A program made the translations under genes and the position numbers. This document shows, piece by piece, positions 2,012 through 14,375 of a stretch of 64,000 nt of DNA. Within the stretch, counting starts at the first letter, position 1. Every line of letters starts with the position of its first letter. The notes beneath the pieces were generated by a model. The model was not told the origin of the DNA. It was given only the letters and a program-made list of their open reading frames with translations, and searched no databases. Where the stretch lies: the sequence record MK962754.1; one strand, 5' to 3'. The stretch is from Shigella phage JK36.

Positions 2012-2496
2012 ATATACGCTTTCCAAGTTCCTGTTTTAAATGTTGAGATTACGCGTTTCGCGCGATTAGGTGTCTGACGATACCATTTAGATTGGGCTAG
2101 ATTTACTGCCGCTTCATCCCAACGTTTCTGTTGAAGCATACGAAGAGAATTAGTAAAACCGGCGACGCCTGCTACACCCATTTGGAAGACCATATTGACC
2201 AATGCACAACGACGAACTGCATCTAAAGAATCATACACCGGTTTAAGTTTAGCATTACCCAAGATTCCGCGAACGGCTTTATCGACGTCTTCATTAAATA
2301 GCTTTTCGGCCTCATCAAGGGTAATTGTACCGTTGCATTTACGACCGATCATTCTGTCAAGTTCAGCTTTAGCTACGGCTAAAGACGGGTTCTTTGTTAC
2401 TAAATGGCCTATGCCAATCGTCCAAAAGCCTTCAGTGTCTTTGTATAAAGTCAGTCTAAGACCTTCGTCATTACGAAGCATTTCAAATATATTCAT
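2008..2496 (-). CDS. e: T4-type endolysin (lysozyme e)
   Basis: [15 protein letters not shown]...DEAEKLF... about 80% identical by eye to T4 lysozyme incl. catalytic E11/D20/T26 context. Confidence 0.95.
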
Positions 2497-2530
2497 AATA
2501 CCTCCCACGTTTATAGGAGGTATTTATTAC

Positions 2531-2989
2531 TTATAGGAGGGTAGTGAGCACCTTATATAATGATTTGCCCATTACATATTCCCATTGAGAAGGTTTAATT
2601 AAAGCGAATGCATCAAATTCAGGAATCTGTCGTCCGTCTGGGAATGTATGATAGGAATTACAAACACTGTTTCTGAATTGCTCGTGCTCTACAGGGATGG
2701 TATATTGGAACAGATGAATATTCTTATTGTCTGAGTAATGATGTTCGCCTAGGTCTTTCAGGAAGGCAGGGTCATATTGTGTAAACCCAGTTTCTTCTTC
2801 GCATTCACGAATAGCGGCTTCAATAGGAGATTCGCCAGGTTCGACACGGCCTTTAGGAATATCCCAGCGATGAACTAATGCACCTTTAGGACGAGAACCA
2901 GTTACACGGCCCATGAATAATTCTTTATCTTCGGTAAGGAAAATAATACCGGCTGATAGTTCTTTCACTTTATTTTTCTTACTCATCAT
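2531..2989 (-). CDS. nudE: Nudix hydrolase
   Basis: Nudix box GRVEPGESPIEAAIRECEEETG; position right after e as in T4. Confidence 0.85.
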   Translation of the reverse strand: MMSKKNKVKELSAGIIFLTEDKELFMGRVTGSRPKGALVHRWDIPKGRVEPGESPIEAAIRECEEETGFTQYDPAFLKDLGEHHYSDNKNIHLFQYTIPVEHEQFRNSVCNSYHTFPDGRQIPEFDAFALIKPSQWEYVMGKSLYKVLTTLL

Positions 2990-4390: not shown

Positions 4391-4696
4391 TTATTTTCCT
4401 CGGCATTCTTTAATGAAATTTTCTAGATTGGTAGATTCAATAGCTTTTTTACGAGCTTCGGCATGTTCTTCTTCAGACAATTTACATTTATAATTGACCC
4501 AGACATTATGGTCGAAACTAGTCGTGGCATATAATAACAATGCTCCAACGAATAGCAAAAACGGCGATAAGAATACAAAACCAGGAACACCATCCATATC
4601 GTACGCCTTTTGTAATACTGCAACAGAAAGAGCTGCGTAAAAAGGTGATGCAAATATTGTTAAAAGGCCAATTCGGTTGGTTTCGCCTAATTTCAT
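4391..4696 (-). CDS. small 2-TM membrane protein, 'FIxECR-tail' family (101 aa)
   Basis: Two hydrophobic helices; C-terminal ...ESTNLENFIKECRGK; ATG with GAGGAGA RBS; PeSL upstream. Confidence 0.5.
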   Translation of the reverse strand: MKLGETNRIGLLTIFASPFYAALSVAVLQKAYDMDGVPGFVFLSPFLLFVGALLLYATTSFDHNVWVNYKCKLSEEEHAEARKKAIESTNLENFIKECRGK

Positions 4697-5035: not shown

Positions 5036-5992
5036 TTATTTGAAAGGTTTTACCATATGGAAATTTTGTTTGAAACGTTTGACGTAATCGTCGTGTCCTA
5101 AGCTTTGGTACATACTTACTACTTTGCTATAATTTTCCCAAGCGAACTCACGGAACCATCCTGATGTGATTGATGTACAGACCTTTTCAAGGGCCATCAT
5201 AAAACTATCACGTGGATGGATTTTAAAGTCGTTAGGAATCTGTGAACGTTCTAACGCTAGTACACATGATTCTTCGTATACGCCGGCCAATTTGACCATT
5301 TCTGGTAATGATTCGAACTTCTCGCGTGAGGTCATGACTTCAGAACCGTCTTTCATATAAAATGTATACGCTGGACGGTCTGTTAGTGCAATGGCTTCAT
5401 GAATAGTATCATGGTCATATGTATAGATGTCACCTTTAAAGAACGCACTTTTAGAAGTGTCAAGAACCGGGTGAGCATAGTTCAAGGTTTCTTTCTGGCG
5501 TTTCAGCATAATTTCAGTAAGTTCATCGTTCAGTGTAACACCTTTACCACGAAGATACTGAATATGGTTCATAGTCTTTAAAAAGAACGGATTATTTTTC
5601 TTGAAACGATGGGACATCTTAATTGCAAGACACATCTCAGGAGTTGCCCAGTAAAACCCGTTCAAACGGTCTTTAGTCAAATTTTTCTTGGCGTATTTTA
5701 AAAGGTCATAAGAAGACGTGAAATCTTCAGGAGTGAGTTCACCGACTAGTTCGCGAACGTTAGTGAGAGCCGGAACGATGTATGCTTCAAAATGAGTTTC
5801 GCGTCCATTATGGAAGCATTTGAAAACTTGGACATCAGGGTTATCTTGGTGAACATATACACCCATCATTTGATTTTTGAATGCATTCCAAGAACATTGG
5901 TCTGCAATAAAGTCCCAATCACTATTTTTAATAGCGCTAGAATCAATAAGACCGTGATAGTGAAGTGCACGAGAACCAATAACTAACATCAT
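5036..5992 (-). CDS. hypothetical protein (318 aa), possible nucleotidyltransferase-fold N-terminus
   Basis: Largest novel ORF; N-terminal IGSRAL...(17 aa)...SDWDFIAD resembles the G[GS]...D-x-D signature of pol-beta-type NTases (weak). Confidence 0.5.
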   Translation of the reverse strand: MMLVIGSRALHYHGLIDSSAIKNSDWDFIADQCSWNAFKNQMMGVYVHQDNPDVQVFKCFHNGRETHFEAYIVPALTNVRELVGELTPEDFTSSYDLLKYAKKNLTKDRLNGFYWATPEMCLAIKMSHRFKKNNPFFLKTMNHIQYLRGKGVTLNDELTEIMLKRQKETLNYAHPVLDTSKSAFFKGDIYTYDHDTIHEAIALTDRPAYTFYMKDGSEVMTSREKFESLPEMVKLAGVYEESCVLALERSQIPNDFKIHPRDSFMMALEKVCTSITSGWFREFAWENYSKVVSMYQSLGHDDYVKRFKQNFHMVKPFK

Positions 5993-6020: not shown

Positions 6021-6260
6021 TTAAATTTCACGACATGCGATATTATATTCATCCCAGAGGTCATCATGTGAAGCCTCTACCAATGGAACGATTGTACCGT
6101 TTATGTCTTCATTATAAGGGCAAATTGTACAGTGCGCATCTTCGAATCGGATGCCTTTGTGTTCAGATTTTTTATAACGCATATCGAATATCTTTGCAAA
6201 CTTTTCACGAGTAATGGTTTTACCAACCACTTTGGTTCCGATACTTTCGTAATAAATCAT
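6021..6260 (-). CDS. small Cys-containing protein (79 aa)
   Basis: Start moved to ATG with GGAG RBS (MIYYESIG...); contains HCTICP motif; follows PeSL. Confidence 0.45.
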   Translation of the reverse strand: MIYYESIGTKVVGKTITREKFAKIFDMRYKKSEHKGIRFEDAHCTICPYNEDINGTIVPLVEASHDDLWDEYNIACREI

Positions 6261-6273
6261 TGTGGACTCCATT

Positions 6274-6320
6274 TGTTTTGATAGGACTACTATAACATAG
6301 CCCTATCTTGTTGTAAACTG
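6274..6320 (-). promoter_or_regulatory. early promoter / PeSL-like cassette
   Basis: Minus GTTTAC (plus 6313-6318), spacer, TATAGT, stem-loop GATAGG..CCTATC. Confidence 0.55.
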
Positions 6321-6322
6321 TT

Positions 6323-6520
6323 TTAGCAAGAATAACTAGATGATACCCAGCCTTGAACAGTGATACTATTGTGGGATAATGAGATCGCGTCCTGGAGATT
6401 CAGACCTGCGTTATCTTCAATCCATAATGTAACTTCTTCGCGTTCTTCTGTTGCAATTTGGAACAGGTTTTCCAGAGCAGCTACTGCCGTACGTACAGCA
6501 CAATCTAATTCACGAGACAT
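6323..6520 (-). CDS. small protein, 'WVxSSxxC' paralog 3 (65 aa)
   Basis: C-terminus ...QGWVSSSYSC; N-terminal helix similar to neighbours; tandem with 6530..6802 and 6812..7117. Confidence 0.5.
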   Translation of the reverse strand: MSRELDCAVRTAVAALENLFQIATEEREEVTLWIEDNAGLNLQDAISLSHNSITVQGWVSSSYSC

Positions 6521-6529
6521 ATTGTTTCC

Positions 6530-6802
6530 TTAGCAAGTGTGAGAAGATGCGACCCAACCACCAGTTTCGAGGCTCAGGTTGTAGTCGTATTGGTAAACGT
6601 CAGCCCATTCAGCATAGCCGTTTTTTGTACAACGTTCAAGATCGGCTTTAAGATGTCCGGGTGAATGATAGGTTCCACCCATACCATAAGCTGGGTACAA
6701 GTTGAATGTTGTGTTTTGTTTATCAGCAATTTCTTTGGCAGCCTCAATAGCTGCATAGATTTTTGCTACAGCTTCAGCCAGTTCGGTTTGTTCTTTAGAC
6801 AT
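6530..6802 (-). CDS. small protein, 'WVxSSxxC' paralog 2 (90 aa)
   Basis: C-terminus ...GGWVASSHTC; stop overlaps RBS of next gene. Confidence 0.5.
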   Translation of the reverse strand: MSKEQTELAEAVAKIYAAIEAAKEIADKQNTTFNLYPAYGMGGTYHSPGHLKADLERCTKNGYAEWADVYQYDYNLSLETGGWVASSHTC

Positions 6803-6811
6803 AATGATTCC

Positions 6812-7117
6812 TTAGCACAACGCAGAAGACGAAACCCAAGCACCTTCAGTAATAACGTATCCATTACCTTCACGCTTAACATCGCCGCCATTATTTTCAA
6901 TTTCATCTTTCATCCACTGGGATACGATTTCACCCTTAGGATAATAAGTACGACCGCTACCATAATCACCTACAGAAAATGATACGGCATATTGGTCTGC
7001 GATCTTTGTTGCTTCTTCTTCGATACGTTCAGCTTGATTCAGAAGTTTATAAATTGCATCTGAAGCGGATTTGGCATCATTAAACTCTGGTACTTTAATT
7101 TCAATAATCTTACTCAT
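6812..7117 (-). CDS. small protein, 'WVxSSxxC' paralog 1 (101 aa)
   Basis: C-terminus ...GAWVSSSALC; translationally coupled (ATGA overlap) to upstream membrane-protein gene. Confidence 0.5.
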   Translation of the reverse strand: MSKIIEIKVPEFNDAKSASDAIYKLLNQAERIEEEATKIADQYAVSFSVGDYGSGRTYYPKGEIVSQWMKDEIENNGGDVKREGNGYVITEGAWVSSSALC

Positions 7118-7473
7118 TTTCTACATTCCTTAATAAAGTTTTCGATTGTTTCATTTTCACGTCTAGCTAGGAGTTCATTATAACTAATCATTTGAGAAGC
7201 GTAAACCTTTTTATTTTTCTTGTTGTGGTTTATAAAATCGTAGTAAAAATAGACTACAGTACAAAATGATGCGATGGATGCAAAGGCTTGGGTGTACCGT
7301 AAGTCCTGCCATTGGTCTGTGAATCCACCAGTGTTCCCTATAAATCCTAACACAACGCCGTCAATAAGAAATCCAACTAATCCAAAGGCAAATCCCATGC
7401 CAATACTCATAATAAAAATTAGAATGTTCTCACCAAGAGAAGGCCATACGGTTAAGAGTTGAGGCTTTTGCAT
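7114..7473 (-). CDS. membrane protein, 'FIxECR-tail' family (119 aa)
   Basis: Hydrophobic helices; C-terminal ...ENETIENFIKECRK. Confidence 0.5.
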   Translation of the reverse strand: MQKPQLLTVWPSLGENILIFIMSIGMGFAFGLVGFLIDGVVLGFIGNTGGFTDQWQDLRYTQAFASIASFCTVVYFYYDFINHNKKNKKVYASQMISYNELLARRENETIENFIKECRK

Positions 7474-7877
7474 CTTATTTCCTTAACGAATTCCATAGCT
7501 TCTTCATATTCATACTTTTTAACAGCTTCATCATACTGAGCTTGGGCTTTTGCGCACTGAACTCTCCATTCTCTTACTCGAGCTCTGTGATGACGGCCTT
7601 GGTGCCAATATCCAATCCAATTAATAGGCATCAATAAAAACGGTACAATAAGTGGTGCGACGAACATTAATGAAAATGCTGCATCAGACGATATAACTTC
7701 ACTAGAATCTAAAACAGCTCCTATAATCATAAAGATTAAAAATGCTAAAGCTAAAATAGGGCCAAATAGTACTTCATTTGGGATTAATTTACGCTTATAT
7801 TCATACGCCCAGGGCTTACTTGGCATGTATAGGGTTGGCTTTGACATATTCTCTACATTCCATAATAAATTGCTCAA
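7452..7877 (-). CDS. membrane protein, divergent 'FIxECR-tail' family (141 aa; alternative start at 7847)
   Basis: Two hydrophobic helices; tail ...EEAMEFVKEIRCKSLNS; start ambiguous between 7877 and 7847. Confidence 0.45.
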   Translation of the reverse strand: MSNLLWNVENMSKPTLYMPSKPWAYEYKRKLIPNEVLFGPILALAFLIFMIIGAVLDSSEVISSDAAFSLMFVAPLIVPFLLMPINWIGYWHQGRHHRARVREWRVQCAKAQAQYDEAVKKYEYEEAMEFVKEIRCKSLNS

Positions 7878-8439
7878 GGATTAAATTGTTAGTGAAATTA
7901 GGACTAACAACCATAGTTTCATAAAGCGCATCAATAGCACTTAAAGCATCAACTCTTTTAAGCAAAGGCTTGCCTTCATACATAGTTTCAGAATCGATGA
8001 TTAACGTAAAGTAATATTTTTTATTATCGACTAGAACTTCTGTATCGATATAAAACATATTAGACCTCAGAAGCTTATCTCTAAAACCATAATAATCTTC
8101 AGAGCGTTCGCTGATATATTCCCATTCAGTGTTTAAACAACAAACAGACCATGTAGGAGCAACGAAATCAGTGAATCTAATATCATGGTCTGCAACTAGT
8201 TTAGCAATAGCTCCGATATCATGAATCATAATACCTGGGGCTAATAAAGATTTTCTGCTATGGCTAGCCGTTTTCTCGGTGGTCTCATAAGAAGACGACC
8301 AGTACCATTTACGTCCGGTTGCAACATATCGTAATGAATCAACTAAAGACGTAGGTGGATTTACCTTATCTCGGAACTCTTCGAACATTGAGTCAATATC
8401 ATTATTTTGGTTTCGCATGTTAACTCCTTTATTATCCAA
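7816..8439 (-). CDS. hypothetical protein (207 aa) with internal FIMECR motif near C-terminus
   Basis: ORF in operon; ...LEQFIMECREYVKANPIHAK near C-terminus; no obvious TM segment. Confidence 0.5.
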   Translation of the reverse strand: MDNKGVNMRNQNNDIDSMFEEFRDKVNPPTSLVDSLRYVATGRKWYWSSSYETTEKTASHSRKSLLAPGIMIHDIGAIAKLVADHDIRFTDFVAPTWSVCCLNTEWEYISERSEDYYGFRDKLLRSNMFYIDTEVLVDNKKYYFTLIIDSETMYEGKPLLKRVDALSAIDALYETMVVSPNFTNNLILEQFIMECREYVKANPIHAK

Positions 8440-11468: not shown

Positions 11469-11544
11469 TGGTCGAGACAGTAGGGATCGAACCTACGACC
11501 TAGGACTTAGAAGGTCCTTGCTCTTCCTTCTGAGCTATGCCTCG
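11469..11544 (-). tRNA. tRNA-Arg (anticodon TCT)
   Basis: Hand-folded cloverleaf on minus strand: acceptor CGAGGCA/TGTCTCG, T-loop GGTTCGATCC, anticodon loop CTTCTAA, CCA encoded. Confidence 0.8.
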
Positions 11545-11548
11545 TATT

Positions 11549-11623
11549 TGGCGGACGTGATAGGATTCGAACCTATAACCAATCGCTTAACAGGCGATCG
11601 CTCTGCCATTGAGCTACACATCC
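11549..11623 (-). tRNA. tRNA-Asn (anticodon GTT)
   Basis: Acceptor GGATGTG/CACGTCC, T-loop GGTTCGAATCC, anticodon loop CTGTTAA, CCA encoded; not in T4's set. Confidence 0.75.
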
Positions 11624-11627
11624 AAAT

Positions 11628-11714
11628 TGGTGGGGAGTGATGGAGTCGAACCACCCGAGTCGCAATGACAATGGATTTACAGTCCACACCGCTACCTCTA
11701 CGGGATAACTCCCC
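11628..11714 (-). tRNA. tRNA-Tyr (anticodon GTA), long variable arm
   Basis: Acceptor GGGGAGT/ACTCCCC, anticodon loop CTGTAAA, long variable arm, CCA encoded; not in T4's set. Confidence 0.75.
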
Positions 11715-11726
11715 TAATTCATAATT

Positions 11727-11801
11727 TGGTGGCCCTGGGTGGAATTGAACCACCATCTGGCGATTATGAGTCGCTTGCTTGAACCTTCCAGCTACAGGGC
11801 C
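11727..11801 (-). tRNA. tRNA with anticodon CAT (Met, or Ile2 if lysidinylated)
   Basis: Acceptor GGCCCTG/CAGGGCC, T-arm GGTGGTTCAATTCCACC, anticodon loop CTCATAA. Confidence 0.7.
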
Positions 11802-11802
11802 T

Positions 11803-11878
11803 TGGTGCTGATTGACGGAATCGAACCGCCGACCTTCTCATTACAAGTGAGTTGCTCTACCTACTGAGCTAAATCAGC
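11803..11878 (-). tRNA. tRNA-Thr (anticodon TGT)
   Basis: Acceptor GCTGATT/AATCAGC, T-loop GGTTCGATTCC, anticodon loop CTTGTAA. Confidence 0.8.
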
Positions 11879-11883
11879 AAAAC

Positions 11884-11973
11884 TGGCGGAGGCGATAGGA
11901 TTTGAACCTATGAGTCGCCGGAGCGACTGCCGGTTTTCAAGACCGGTGCATTAAACCACTCTGCCACGCCTCC
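11884..11973 (-). tRNA. tRNA-Ser (anticodon TGA), long variable arm
   Basis: Acceptor GGAGGCG/CGCCTCC, anticodon loop CTTGAAA, long variable arm, CCA encoded. Confidence 0.8.
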
Positions 11974-11975
11974 AG

Positions 11976-12049
11976 TCTCCATACAAGGATTTGAACCTTG
12001 GACCTCCTGATCCCAAATCAGGCGCTCTACCAAACTGAGCTACACGGAG
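11976..12049 (-). tRNA. tRNA-Pro (anticodon TGG), CCA not encoded
   Basis: Acceptor CTCCGTG/TATGGAG, anticodon loop TTTGGGA; 3' end followed by CTG not CCA. Confidence 0.75.
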
Positions 12050-12059
12050 TAAATTAAAT

Positions 12060-12133
<74 letters not shown>

Positions 12134-12138
12134 AAATT

Positions 12139-12225
12139 TGGTGCGAGAAGTGGGACTCGAACCCACAAGGAAATCATTCCGCAGCATTTTAAGTGCTGTG
12201 CCTTTACCAATTTGGCCATTCTCGC
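12139..12225 (-). tRNA. tRNA-Leu (anticodon TAA), long variable arm
   Basis: Acceptor GCGAGAA/TTCTCGC, anticodon loop CTTAAAA, long variable arm. Confidence 0.8.
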
Positions 12226-12226
12226 G

Positions 12227-12299
12227 CTGGGAATAAAGGACTCGAACCTTTGCATCCTGGAATCAAAATCCAGTGCCTTACCAACTTGGCTAATTCCCA
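12227..12299 (-). tRNA. tRNA-Gln (anticodon TTG), CCA not encoded; 1 nt from tRNA-Leu
   Basis: Acceptor TGGGAAT/ATTCCCA, T-arm AAGGTTCGAGTCCTTT, anticodon loop TTTTGAT. Confidence 0.75.

Positions 12300-13689: not shown

Positions 13690-14375
<686 letters not shown>

Follow-up and report, generated by a model that had tools for sequence, protein, structure and literature searches.

A Cys-terminated tail shared by tandem small proteins of Shigella phage JK36 and their linkage to a predicted nucleotidyltransferase gene

Nucleotidyltransferases (NTases) of the pol-beta fold that modify proteins include MntA and GlnD/GlnE, and MntA AMPylates HepT, which provides a precedent for the covalent modification considered below. 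In the MenAT1 module, MenA1, a 68-aa helical antitoxin encoded upstream of MenT1, obstructs the active site in each of two MenT1 protomers (PMC10435456). Additionally, MenT NTases can transfer phosphate to the Ser/Thr hydroxyl of a protein in their own active site (PMC11375011). The locus analysed here lies in a stretch of 64,000 nucleotides from Shigella phage JK36 (MK962754.1), referred to below as the window, and contains three tandem genes for small proteins, P1, P2 and P3, which end in nearly the same Cys-terminated tail. Downstream lies a gene (5036..5992) whose product carries the Pfam domains DUF7277 and DUF7275 and is predicted to be an NTase (hereafter the enzyme). In phage groups that differ widely, this linkage of the NTase gene with genes of the small-protein family, all pointing in one direction, is almost obligatory.

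The original prediction described P1, P2 and P3 as three adjacent minus-strand genes whose products share a C-terminal motif written with different codons, and the open reading frames (ORFs), the tails and the codons are all verified (Table 1). The Ser stretch of the tail is encoded by tcg tct tct in P1, gca tct tct in P2 and tca tct agt in P3. Of the 724 ORFs in the window that are 35 aa or longer from stop to stop, no others carry the tail. The three proteins are all acidic, with isoelectric points (pI) of 4.2-5.0. Pairwise BLASTP comparisons among them give E values of 2e-4 to 1e-3, and each matches the hidden Markov model (HMM) of the family (E 3e-43 for P1, 6e-28 for P2 and 1e-8 for P3); by these sequence comparisons, they are weak but real paralogs. 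Relative to a 92-97% identical relative, the synonymous/non-synonymous codon changes amount to 8/0 in P1, 9/3 in P2 and 13/1 in P3, and this excess of synonymous changes indicates that all three are expressed, constrained genes.

An exhaustive HMMER search of 1.84 billion representatives with a seven-sequence profile (E <= 1e-3) retrieves 173 family clusters, nearly all of 65-140 aa, in which the match extends to the last residue; word-seeded searching recovered close relatives only. A C-terminal Cys is present in 138 of the 153 proteins among the matches listed. The motif, for which the original prediction had pointed to other T4-like genomes for comparison, is found family-wide in other phages, with 199 of 218 non-redundant members ending in Cys. 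Within these 199 proteins, W(-8) and S(-5) are each present in 194 and S(-4) in 192, position -6 is mostly Ser, Ala or Pro, and position -3 is mostly polar. The constant core of the tail, as read from these alignments, is W-x-[SAP]-S-S; a spacer of 0-2 residues separates it from the Cys, and 0-1 residue stands between the Cys and the end of the protein. The tail is preceded by an acidic linker and by another family motif, [AE]YG[MS]GGTYYP; the mean net charge of the proteins is -7.5, and the N-terminal helix runs to ..IA[DE]... P1, P2 and P3 belong to this family by both the HMM and the tail, although P3 lacks the YGxG hairpin and retains the N-terminal helix and the tail. PHROGs splits the family in two, with P1 and P2 in phrog_899 and P3 in phrog_4882. 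These sequence comparisons confirm the tail as a hallmark of a whole phage-only protein family.

The near-invariance of the terminal Cys, on which the original prediction laid weight, holds for the family as a whole but is qualified in two subfamilies. One of them reads W[VI]SSTQ[EA]C and then has one extra residue. The other, a double-motif subtype found at 26 loci, contains an internal DW-x-x-S-S-C-YGE copy in addition to the terminal W-x-x-S-S-C; examples are 13690..13911 of locus L129 (phiR1-RT g128) and 2413..2631 of locus L126. This subtype is absent from the window and common in Dhakavirus, Tegunavirus and other phages.

The proposal that the motif is conserved at the protein level is borne out by 136 distinct tail DNA sequences, in which each of the six Ser codons is found at the invariant Ser positions, Cys is written as TGC or TGT, and the genes end in any of the three stop codons. 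This free use of codons at invariant positions places the constraint on the protein and not on the DNA. A motif acting at the nucleotide level, as a ribosome-binding or recombination signal at the gene junctions, or ORFs that are not genes at all, would accord with the GGA after the stop codons of P1 and P2, which forms the Shine-Dalgarno sequence of the next gene. However, codons drawn from both the TCN and AGY boxes, the retention of the motif where no gene closely follows and the large surplus of synonymous changes make such an explanation the least probable of all those considered.

The spacing of S(-4)-x-x-C(-1)-COOH also matches that of epidermin-type peptides, in which such an end forms aminovinyl-cysteine (AviCys). 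The tails could by analogy belong to precursors resembling ribosomally synthesized and post-translationally modified peptides (RiPPs), with the S-x-x-Cys-COOH end dehydrated and decarboxylated to an AviCys ring or excised as a small molecule. However, dehydratase, HFCD decarboxylase, YcaO and radical-SAM genes were not found in the neighbourhood, the residue at -3 is mostly polar, and subfamilies exist with a residue after the Cys or with a spacing of zero residues. Additionally, a folded domain and not a leader-core peptide is predicted: the AlphaFold2 (AF2) model of P1 is confident (predicted local distance difference test, pLDDT, 89) and places residues 15-43 in a long helix, accompanied by a small sheet and, at the C-terminus, a short turn. 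AviCys formation is thus highly improbable, and for practical purposes processing of the RiPP/AviCys type can be excluded, as can an explanation at the DNA level. Although the monomer prediction suggested at the outset yields a confident fold, it gives no structural neighbour that would hint at a function. Foldseek of the P1 model against the PDB returns no significant neighbour (best E 0.6), a profile of the small proteins against PDB sequences gives nothing significant (E 0.3 or worse), and Pfam and NCBIfam searches with the small proteins give no significant match.

In the first distant homologue located, the tandem set of family genes lies directly upstream of a gene with DUF7277 and DUF7275, the same pair as in 5036..5992. 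From the side of the small proteins, 41 IMG/VR loci were collected by the family pattern, of which 2 end before the downstream DNA; in the remaining 39 of 39 loci, a sample biased to hairpin-bearing subtypes because an alignment containing YGMGGTY was used to find it, 1-6 tandem members lie upstream of the enzyme gene on the same strand. The enzyme-side sample is free of this bias. In it, 73 of 80 IMG/VR loci carry 1-5 members upstream, as detected by HMM or motif (per-locus counts that are underestimates, as the motif scan missed the double-motif subtype), and 2 further loci carry proteins with divergent tails (..SSWVQSSC and ..NWDSSTC). A same-strand NTase gene downstream of family genes is present in a Logan contig as well. 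In the window, the enzyme gene lies 331 nt downstream of P3 on the same strand. The module is also present in the cultured phages phiPsa315 (Pseudomonas, Otagovirus), Mt1B1_P17 (E. coli, Phapecoctavirus) and phiR1-RT (Yersinia, Tegunavirus; g125-g128), in jumbo-phage contigs of about 350-370 kb and in T4-like phages. In the sampled loci, the partners are never found without the enzyme, and the enzyme is sometimes found without partners.

The family pattern detects no relative in the genomes of 185,579 species. Among bacterial genomes, the enzyme is found only in five contigs of metagenome-assembled genomes, and in each of the five the module is of the phage type, the tandem family genes lying upstream in the same orientation. 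The absence of both components from bacterial genomes, except for these five contigs, indicates that the module is restricted to phages and does not reside in bacteria as a bacterial toxin-antitoxin system does.

The linkage bears directly on the possibility that the small proteins are independent effectors that act alone on host targets, for example as acidic mimics or as binders of defence or nucleic-acid-binding proteins, in which case the tail would be a structural element or one for metal binding or dimerization, and the association with the NTase gene would be mere co-regulation in one early cassette. The proteins are small and acidic, and the accessory region that encodes them is transcribed early; the enzyme gene can be set apart from them by other genes, promoters and stem-loops, with gaps of up to 1.3 kb and occasionally more. 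In the AF2 model of P1, moreover, the Trp-Val of the tail sits in a beta-strand of the small sheet, so that the tail Trp belongs to the predicted fold. However, the synteny is kept in Straboviridae, Stephanstirmvirinae, Otagovirus and jumbo phages despite otherwise unrelated neighbours, and family members were not found apart from the enzyme, a pattern that is difficult to account for unless the two are functionally coupled. Independent action is therefore considered unlikely.

The enzyme gene is detected by tblastn in 733 phage records, and a 90%-clustered protein database contains more than 2,200 relatives of its product, all with PF23940 and most also with PF23942. The residues invariant in an alignment of 41 sequences are G6, S7, D25, D27, E69, K125, H128, R165, H174, D193, H194, D195, H198, E240, E241, E248, R249, C272, S274, T276, S277, G278 and R281, and the same set is invariant across 80 further enzyme loci. 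The enzyme has the pattern hG[GS]...Dh[DE]h and a third carboxylate, placed on an alpha/beta NTase fold, as in the superfamily of pol-beta-type NTases. The best structural match is the MenT1 toxin (10.0), followed by ANT(2'') (8.6), TglT/MenT3 (8.3) and MenT4 (7.7), with TM1012 and LnuA lower. In sequence searches, hmmscan against Pfam with E values up to 10 returns only DUF7275 and DUF7277 and not DUF1814, and neither sequence nor profile comparison with PDB chains yields a significant match or finds MenT, which indicates that the similarity between the enzyme and MenT is structural only. The enzyme is thus predicted to be a pol-beta-type NTase of the minimal AbiEii-like kind with a very conserved extra helical domain, and, with this fold and a fully conserved catalytic set, it appears catalytically intact by sequence. 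In its helical domain, the enzyme profile (residues about 67-149) has a weak, non-significant match (E 0.08) to RNase L, namely to the KEN domain, which is of the HEPN type; pairs of NTase and HEPN domains are common.

A shared Cys-Cys or metal site formed by the tail Cys and Cys243 of the enzyme was considered and rejected: Tyr or Met occupies position 243 in loci with Cys-tailed partners, which indicates that Cys243 is not needed. The invariant Cys272 is the remaining candidate for such a site.

The functional unit may thus consist of one NTase and 1-6 small acidic partner proteins, variable in copy number, whose tail would bring each partner, irrespective of the rest of its sequence, to the same conserved site of the enzyme. 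The tail is invariant while the bodies of the proteins diverge, to the point that P3 lacks a whole motif; the copy number varies against a single enzyme gene, and the helix and the tail are the only universally conserved features of the partners. From these patterns, the tail is probably an NTase-interaction element. In the favoured version, which is put forward tentatively, the enzyme would covalently transfer a nucleotidyl or phosphoryl group onto a Ser or Cys of the tail, and this transfer would convert the small proteins to their active form early in infection. This version is preferred because a variable set of divergent tagged proteins beside one enzyme gene is the classical signature of tag processing. 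The whole explanation, from the enzyme to its tagged partners, is given a little less than an even chance. The more specific proposal that the tail is the acceptor tag of a new phage protein-modification system, in which a MenT-like NTase adds a nucleotide, a short oligonucleotide or a phosphate, is more doubtful. If it is true, protein-nucleotide conjugates would be formed on small acidic proteins that act in host takeover or counter-defence. Of the roles first suggested for the terminal Cys (modification, metal binding or recognition), a recognition or modification tag best fits the data.

The small proteins may instead be antitoxin-like regulators of a MenT-like NTase that could itself be toxic, either inhibiting it non-covalently or setting its specificity. 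Helix and tail would then lie in the active site and mimic a substrate, for example by bringing the terminal thiol or carboxylate to a metal site (a "cysteine switch in trans"), and would time or restrict the action of the enzyme on tRNA or another nucleic acid. The gene order, with a small acidic helical protein upstream and an NTase downstream, mirrors that of MenA1-MenT1, and MenT1 is the best structural match of the enzyme. The negative charge of the partners and the occurrence of the enzyme without partners, but never of partners without the enzyme, are also consistent with such regulation, and the double-motif subfamily could bridge two protomers. Additionally, in the only experimental data located, the partners alone are non-toxic: the phiR1-RT orthologues g126, g127 and g128 gave relative colony-forming units (CFU) of 0.94, 0.69 and above 1 in E. 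coli (PMC6893735 supplement), in a screen that used a relative CFU cut-off of 0.4 and whose scope did not extend to the enzyme orthologue g125 (PMC6893735). However, up to six long-maintained, ordered paralogs per genome are without parallel among known antitoxins, and divergent proteins that end in one invariant tag are more typically the substrates of an enzyme. Nor is it obvious why a virulent phage would have to counteract a toxin of its own that is aimed at the host. Regulation of this kind is possible but rather unlikely.

Several observations also weigh against the covalent modification of the tails by the enzyme. The position of the tail Trp-Val in a predicted beta-strand means that part of the conservation may be structural. 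To our knowledge, MenT-like nucleotidylation of a Ser or Cys tail is without precedent, and the known substrates of the closest structural relatives of the enzyme are tRNA 3' ends and antibiotics, not proteins. About 6% of the enzyme loci, from CC31 and one other clade, have no partner, and no partner was found for the short, distant enzyme homologues in Streptomyces and Gordonia phages. The partnerless loci imply that the enzyme must have an activity independent of the partners, and in the comparison of 80 loci the partnerless enzymes have not lost the conserved residues.

In CC31 (locus L066, 3615..4567), the enzyme gene is immediately preceded by seven tRNA genes and has no Cys-tailed partner. 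In the window, a cluster of 10 tRNA genes (11469..12299) is located 4.4 kb upstream of P1. This neighbourhood may matter because MenT-type enzymes act on tRNA. As a general functional hint, tRNA proximity was rejected, as only about 10 of 51 loci have tRNA genes at a distance of 5 kb or less from the enzyme; it is suggestive in CC31.

The tandem paralogs had been taken as a possible sign of an arms race, a reading that does not agree with the comparison across genera. The same paralog types, G[AV]W[VI]SSSxMC for P1, GGWV[SA]SSxxC for P2 and xxW[VQ]SSSYxC for P3, are common to several genera and keep their order, with further types added in Dhakavirus, which indicates that the paralogs are old and stable. 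With substitutions that are mostly synonymous, their sequences point to purifying selection and not to recent arms-race copies.

The window belongs to a Mosigvirus, an RB69-like T4-type phage with 98-99% identity to phages FP43, JK42 and ATK47. The order of the region is e-nudE-e.2, then RB69ORF133c-139c, then e.3-e.6, and all genes discussed are on the minus strand. In T4, e.2 abuts e.3, which indicates that the whole block containing the three tailed genes is absent from T4. The start of P1 overlaps the stop codon of the upstream e.3-like gene as ATGA, and the gaps between P1 and P2 and between P2 and P3 are both 9 nt, with AAGGA spanning the stop codon at each junction. In the RB69 reference record, RB69ORF139c has 71 aa and has lost the tail (…SQWYEK), compared with 101 aa in the window and in 48 other sequences; the short form is probably due to a frameshift or sequencing error that splits ORF138c/139c in RB69.

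Table 1. Positions of the genes, tails and predicted sites discussed, numbered from the first nucleotide of the window.
Feature	Position	Strand	Remarks
P1 (paralog 1)	6812..7117	-	101 aa; pI 4.6; RB69ORF139c orthologue; DYGSGRTYYP hairpin motif; tail GAWVSSSALC; phrog_899 (E 1e-22)
P2 (paralog 2)	6530..6802	-	90 aa; RB69ORF137c orthologue; AYGMGGTYHSPG motif; tail GGWVASSHTC; phrog_899 (E 5e-19)
P3 (paralog 3)	6323..6520	-	65 aa; RB69ORF136c orthologue; tail QGWVSSSYSC; phrog_4882
Tail of P1 (W94-C101)	6815..6838	-	
Tail of P2	6533..6556	-	
Tail of P3	6326..6349	-	
Predicted enzyme gene, DUF7277+DUF7275	5036..5992	-	318 aa; RB69ORF134c orthologue; phrog_2141
HCTICP gene	6021..6260	-	79 aa; phrog_3723; between the paralogs and the enzyme gene
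Stem-loop, 11-bp	6280..6307	-	between P3 and the HCTICP gene; -16.1 kcal/mol; z -2.2; terminator by the SA79RD annotation
Early-promoter-like site	6289..6317	-	TTTACA-17-TATAGT, also given as GTTTAC-17-TATAGT; -10 overlapped by the 11-bp stem-loop
Promoter-like site	7177..7205	-	TTTACG-17-TATAAT; within the upstream e.3-like gene; T4-middle-promoter-like by the SA79RD annotation

The original prediction also joined the triplet to a protein with a CxxC motif (HCTICP), whose gene was thought to end the operon, and neither claim holds. Homologues of the HCTICP protein are found in Mosigvirus and one other lineage only, and they read HCGIDPY, with the second Cys replaced by Asp, so that the CxxC motif is not conserved. 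This narrow distribution and the loss of the motif indicate that the HCTICP gene is an insert and not a core component; the protein was rejected as part of the system, and the near-universal partner of the small proteins is the DUF7277/DUF7275 gene instead. Its ATG at 6260 is preceded at 8 nt by a Shine-Dalgarno-like GGAG, which the alternative ATG at 6272 lacks. As for the end of the operon, a promoter-like site and a stem-loop intervene after P3, and the string of genes continues into 5036..5992. This promoter/stem-loop element (6280..6317), whose stem-loop has no U-tract, is located exactly where the lineage-specific HCTICP gene is inserted and resembles the promoter-early stem-loop cassettes known from T4-type phages.

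A second repeated C-terminal motif is present nearby in small e.3/e.4/e.5-like proteins, several of which are annotated as membrane proteins. The products of 4391..4696, 7114..7473, 7452..7877 and 7816..8439 (minus strand) have the ends ..ENFIKECRGK, ..ENFIKECRK, ..MEFVKEIRCKSLNS and ..EQFIMECREYVK, and counterparts in CC31 (L066) read ENFIRMCRKN, FINDCRKARK, EEFITECRGKN and ENFISRCRIKR. These ends suggest a common tail, [DE]xFIxxCR[KG], where one gene adjoins the next. The e.4-like gene 7452..7877 is named "sulfurtransferase" in JK42, JK45 and F31, a name that has no support from Pfam or NCBIfam; the assignment of this JK42 label to one of the Cys-tailed genes was rejected, as it belongs instead to the e.4-like membrane protein.

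The enzyme gene occurs in more than 700 sequenced phage genomes from several families, including phages of E. coli, Klebsiella, Acinetobacter, Aeromonas and Pseudomonas, and in phages of proteobacteria it is almost always accompanied by Cys-tailed partners. Modification of the tag by the enzyme would be a new protein modification, and a block of the enzyme by the tag would be a new control of a MenT-type enzyme, used by viruses and not by bacteria. Either outcome would assign a function to two DUF and two PHROG families. The window proteins are clear members of PHROG 899/4882 (partners) and of PHROG 2141 and Pfam DUF7277/DUF7275 (enzyme), entries that give no function and no record of the tail motif or of the link between partner and enzyme. 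A literature search across 8 million full texts found no paper that mentions DUF7275, DUF7277 or the RB69 ORF names.

Among systems with shared terminal tags, exosortase/PEP-CTERM, rhombosortase/GlyGly-CTERM, CaaX prenylation and ubiquitin-like GG tails resemble the phage module in that divergent proteins, variable in number, carry an invariant terminal motif and are matched by a single enzyme gene. The phage enzyme is of a different class (an NTase), and the phage proteins are cytoplasmic and have no transmembrane segment. The likeness to the type VII MNT-HEPN (MntA-HepT) system and to GlnD/GlnE would be that an NTase of the pol-beta fold acts on a protein encoded by a neighbouring gene, as MntA does on HepT. 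In contrast to MntA-HepT, the phage partner is not a HEPN RNase, and the proposed acceptor is a Ser or Cys of the tail instead of Tyr.

In MenAT1 and AbiE, as in the phage module, the gene of an NTase of related fold is immediately preceded, in the same orientation, by the gene of a small, acidic, helical protein, and MenT enzymes also transfer phosphate to a protein hydroxyl (PMC11375011). However, the phage enzyme is about 120 aa longer, with the strongly conserved extra helical domain (KVCTSITSGWFRE, DHD..H), and has no sequence match to DUF1814/AbiEii. The phage partners, 1-6 per module and not one, end in the invariant tail with its terminal Cys and are not similar to MenA1, AbiEi or COG5340. 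The phage module, known here from sequence and predicted fold, occurs only in virulent phages and not in bacterial chromosomes. The closest known systems are thus the MenAT/AbiE NTase modules, from which the phage module differs in being viral, in having one to six partners with a Cys-terminated tag, and in the extra helical domain of its enzyme.

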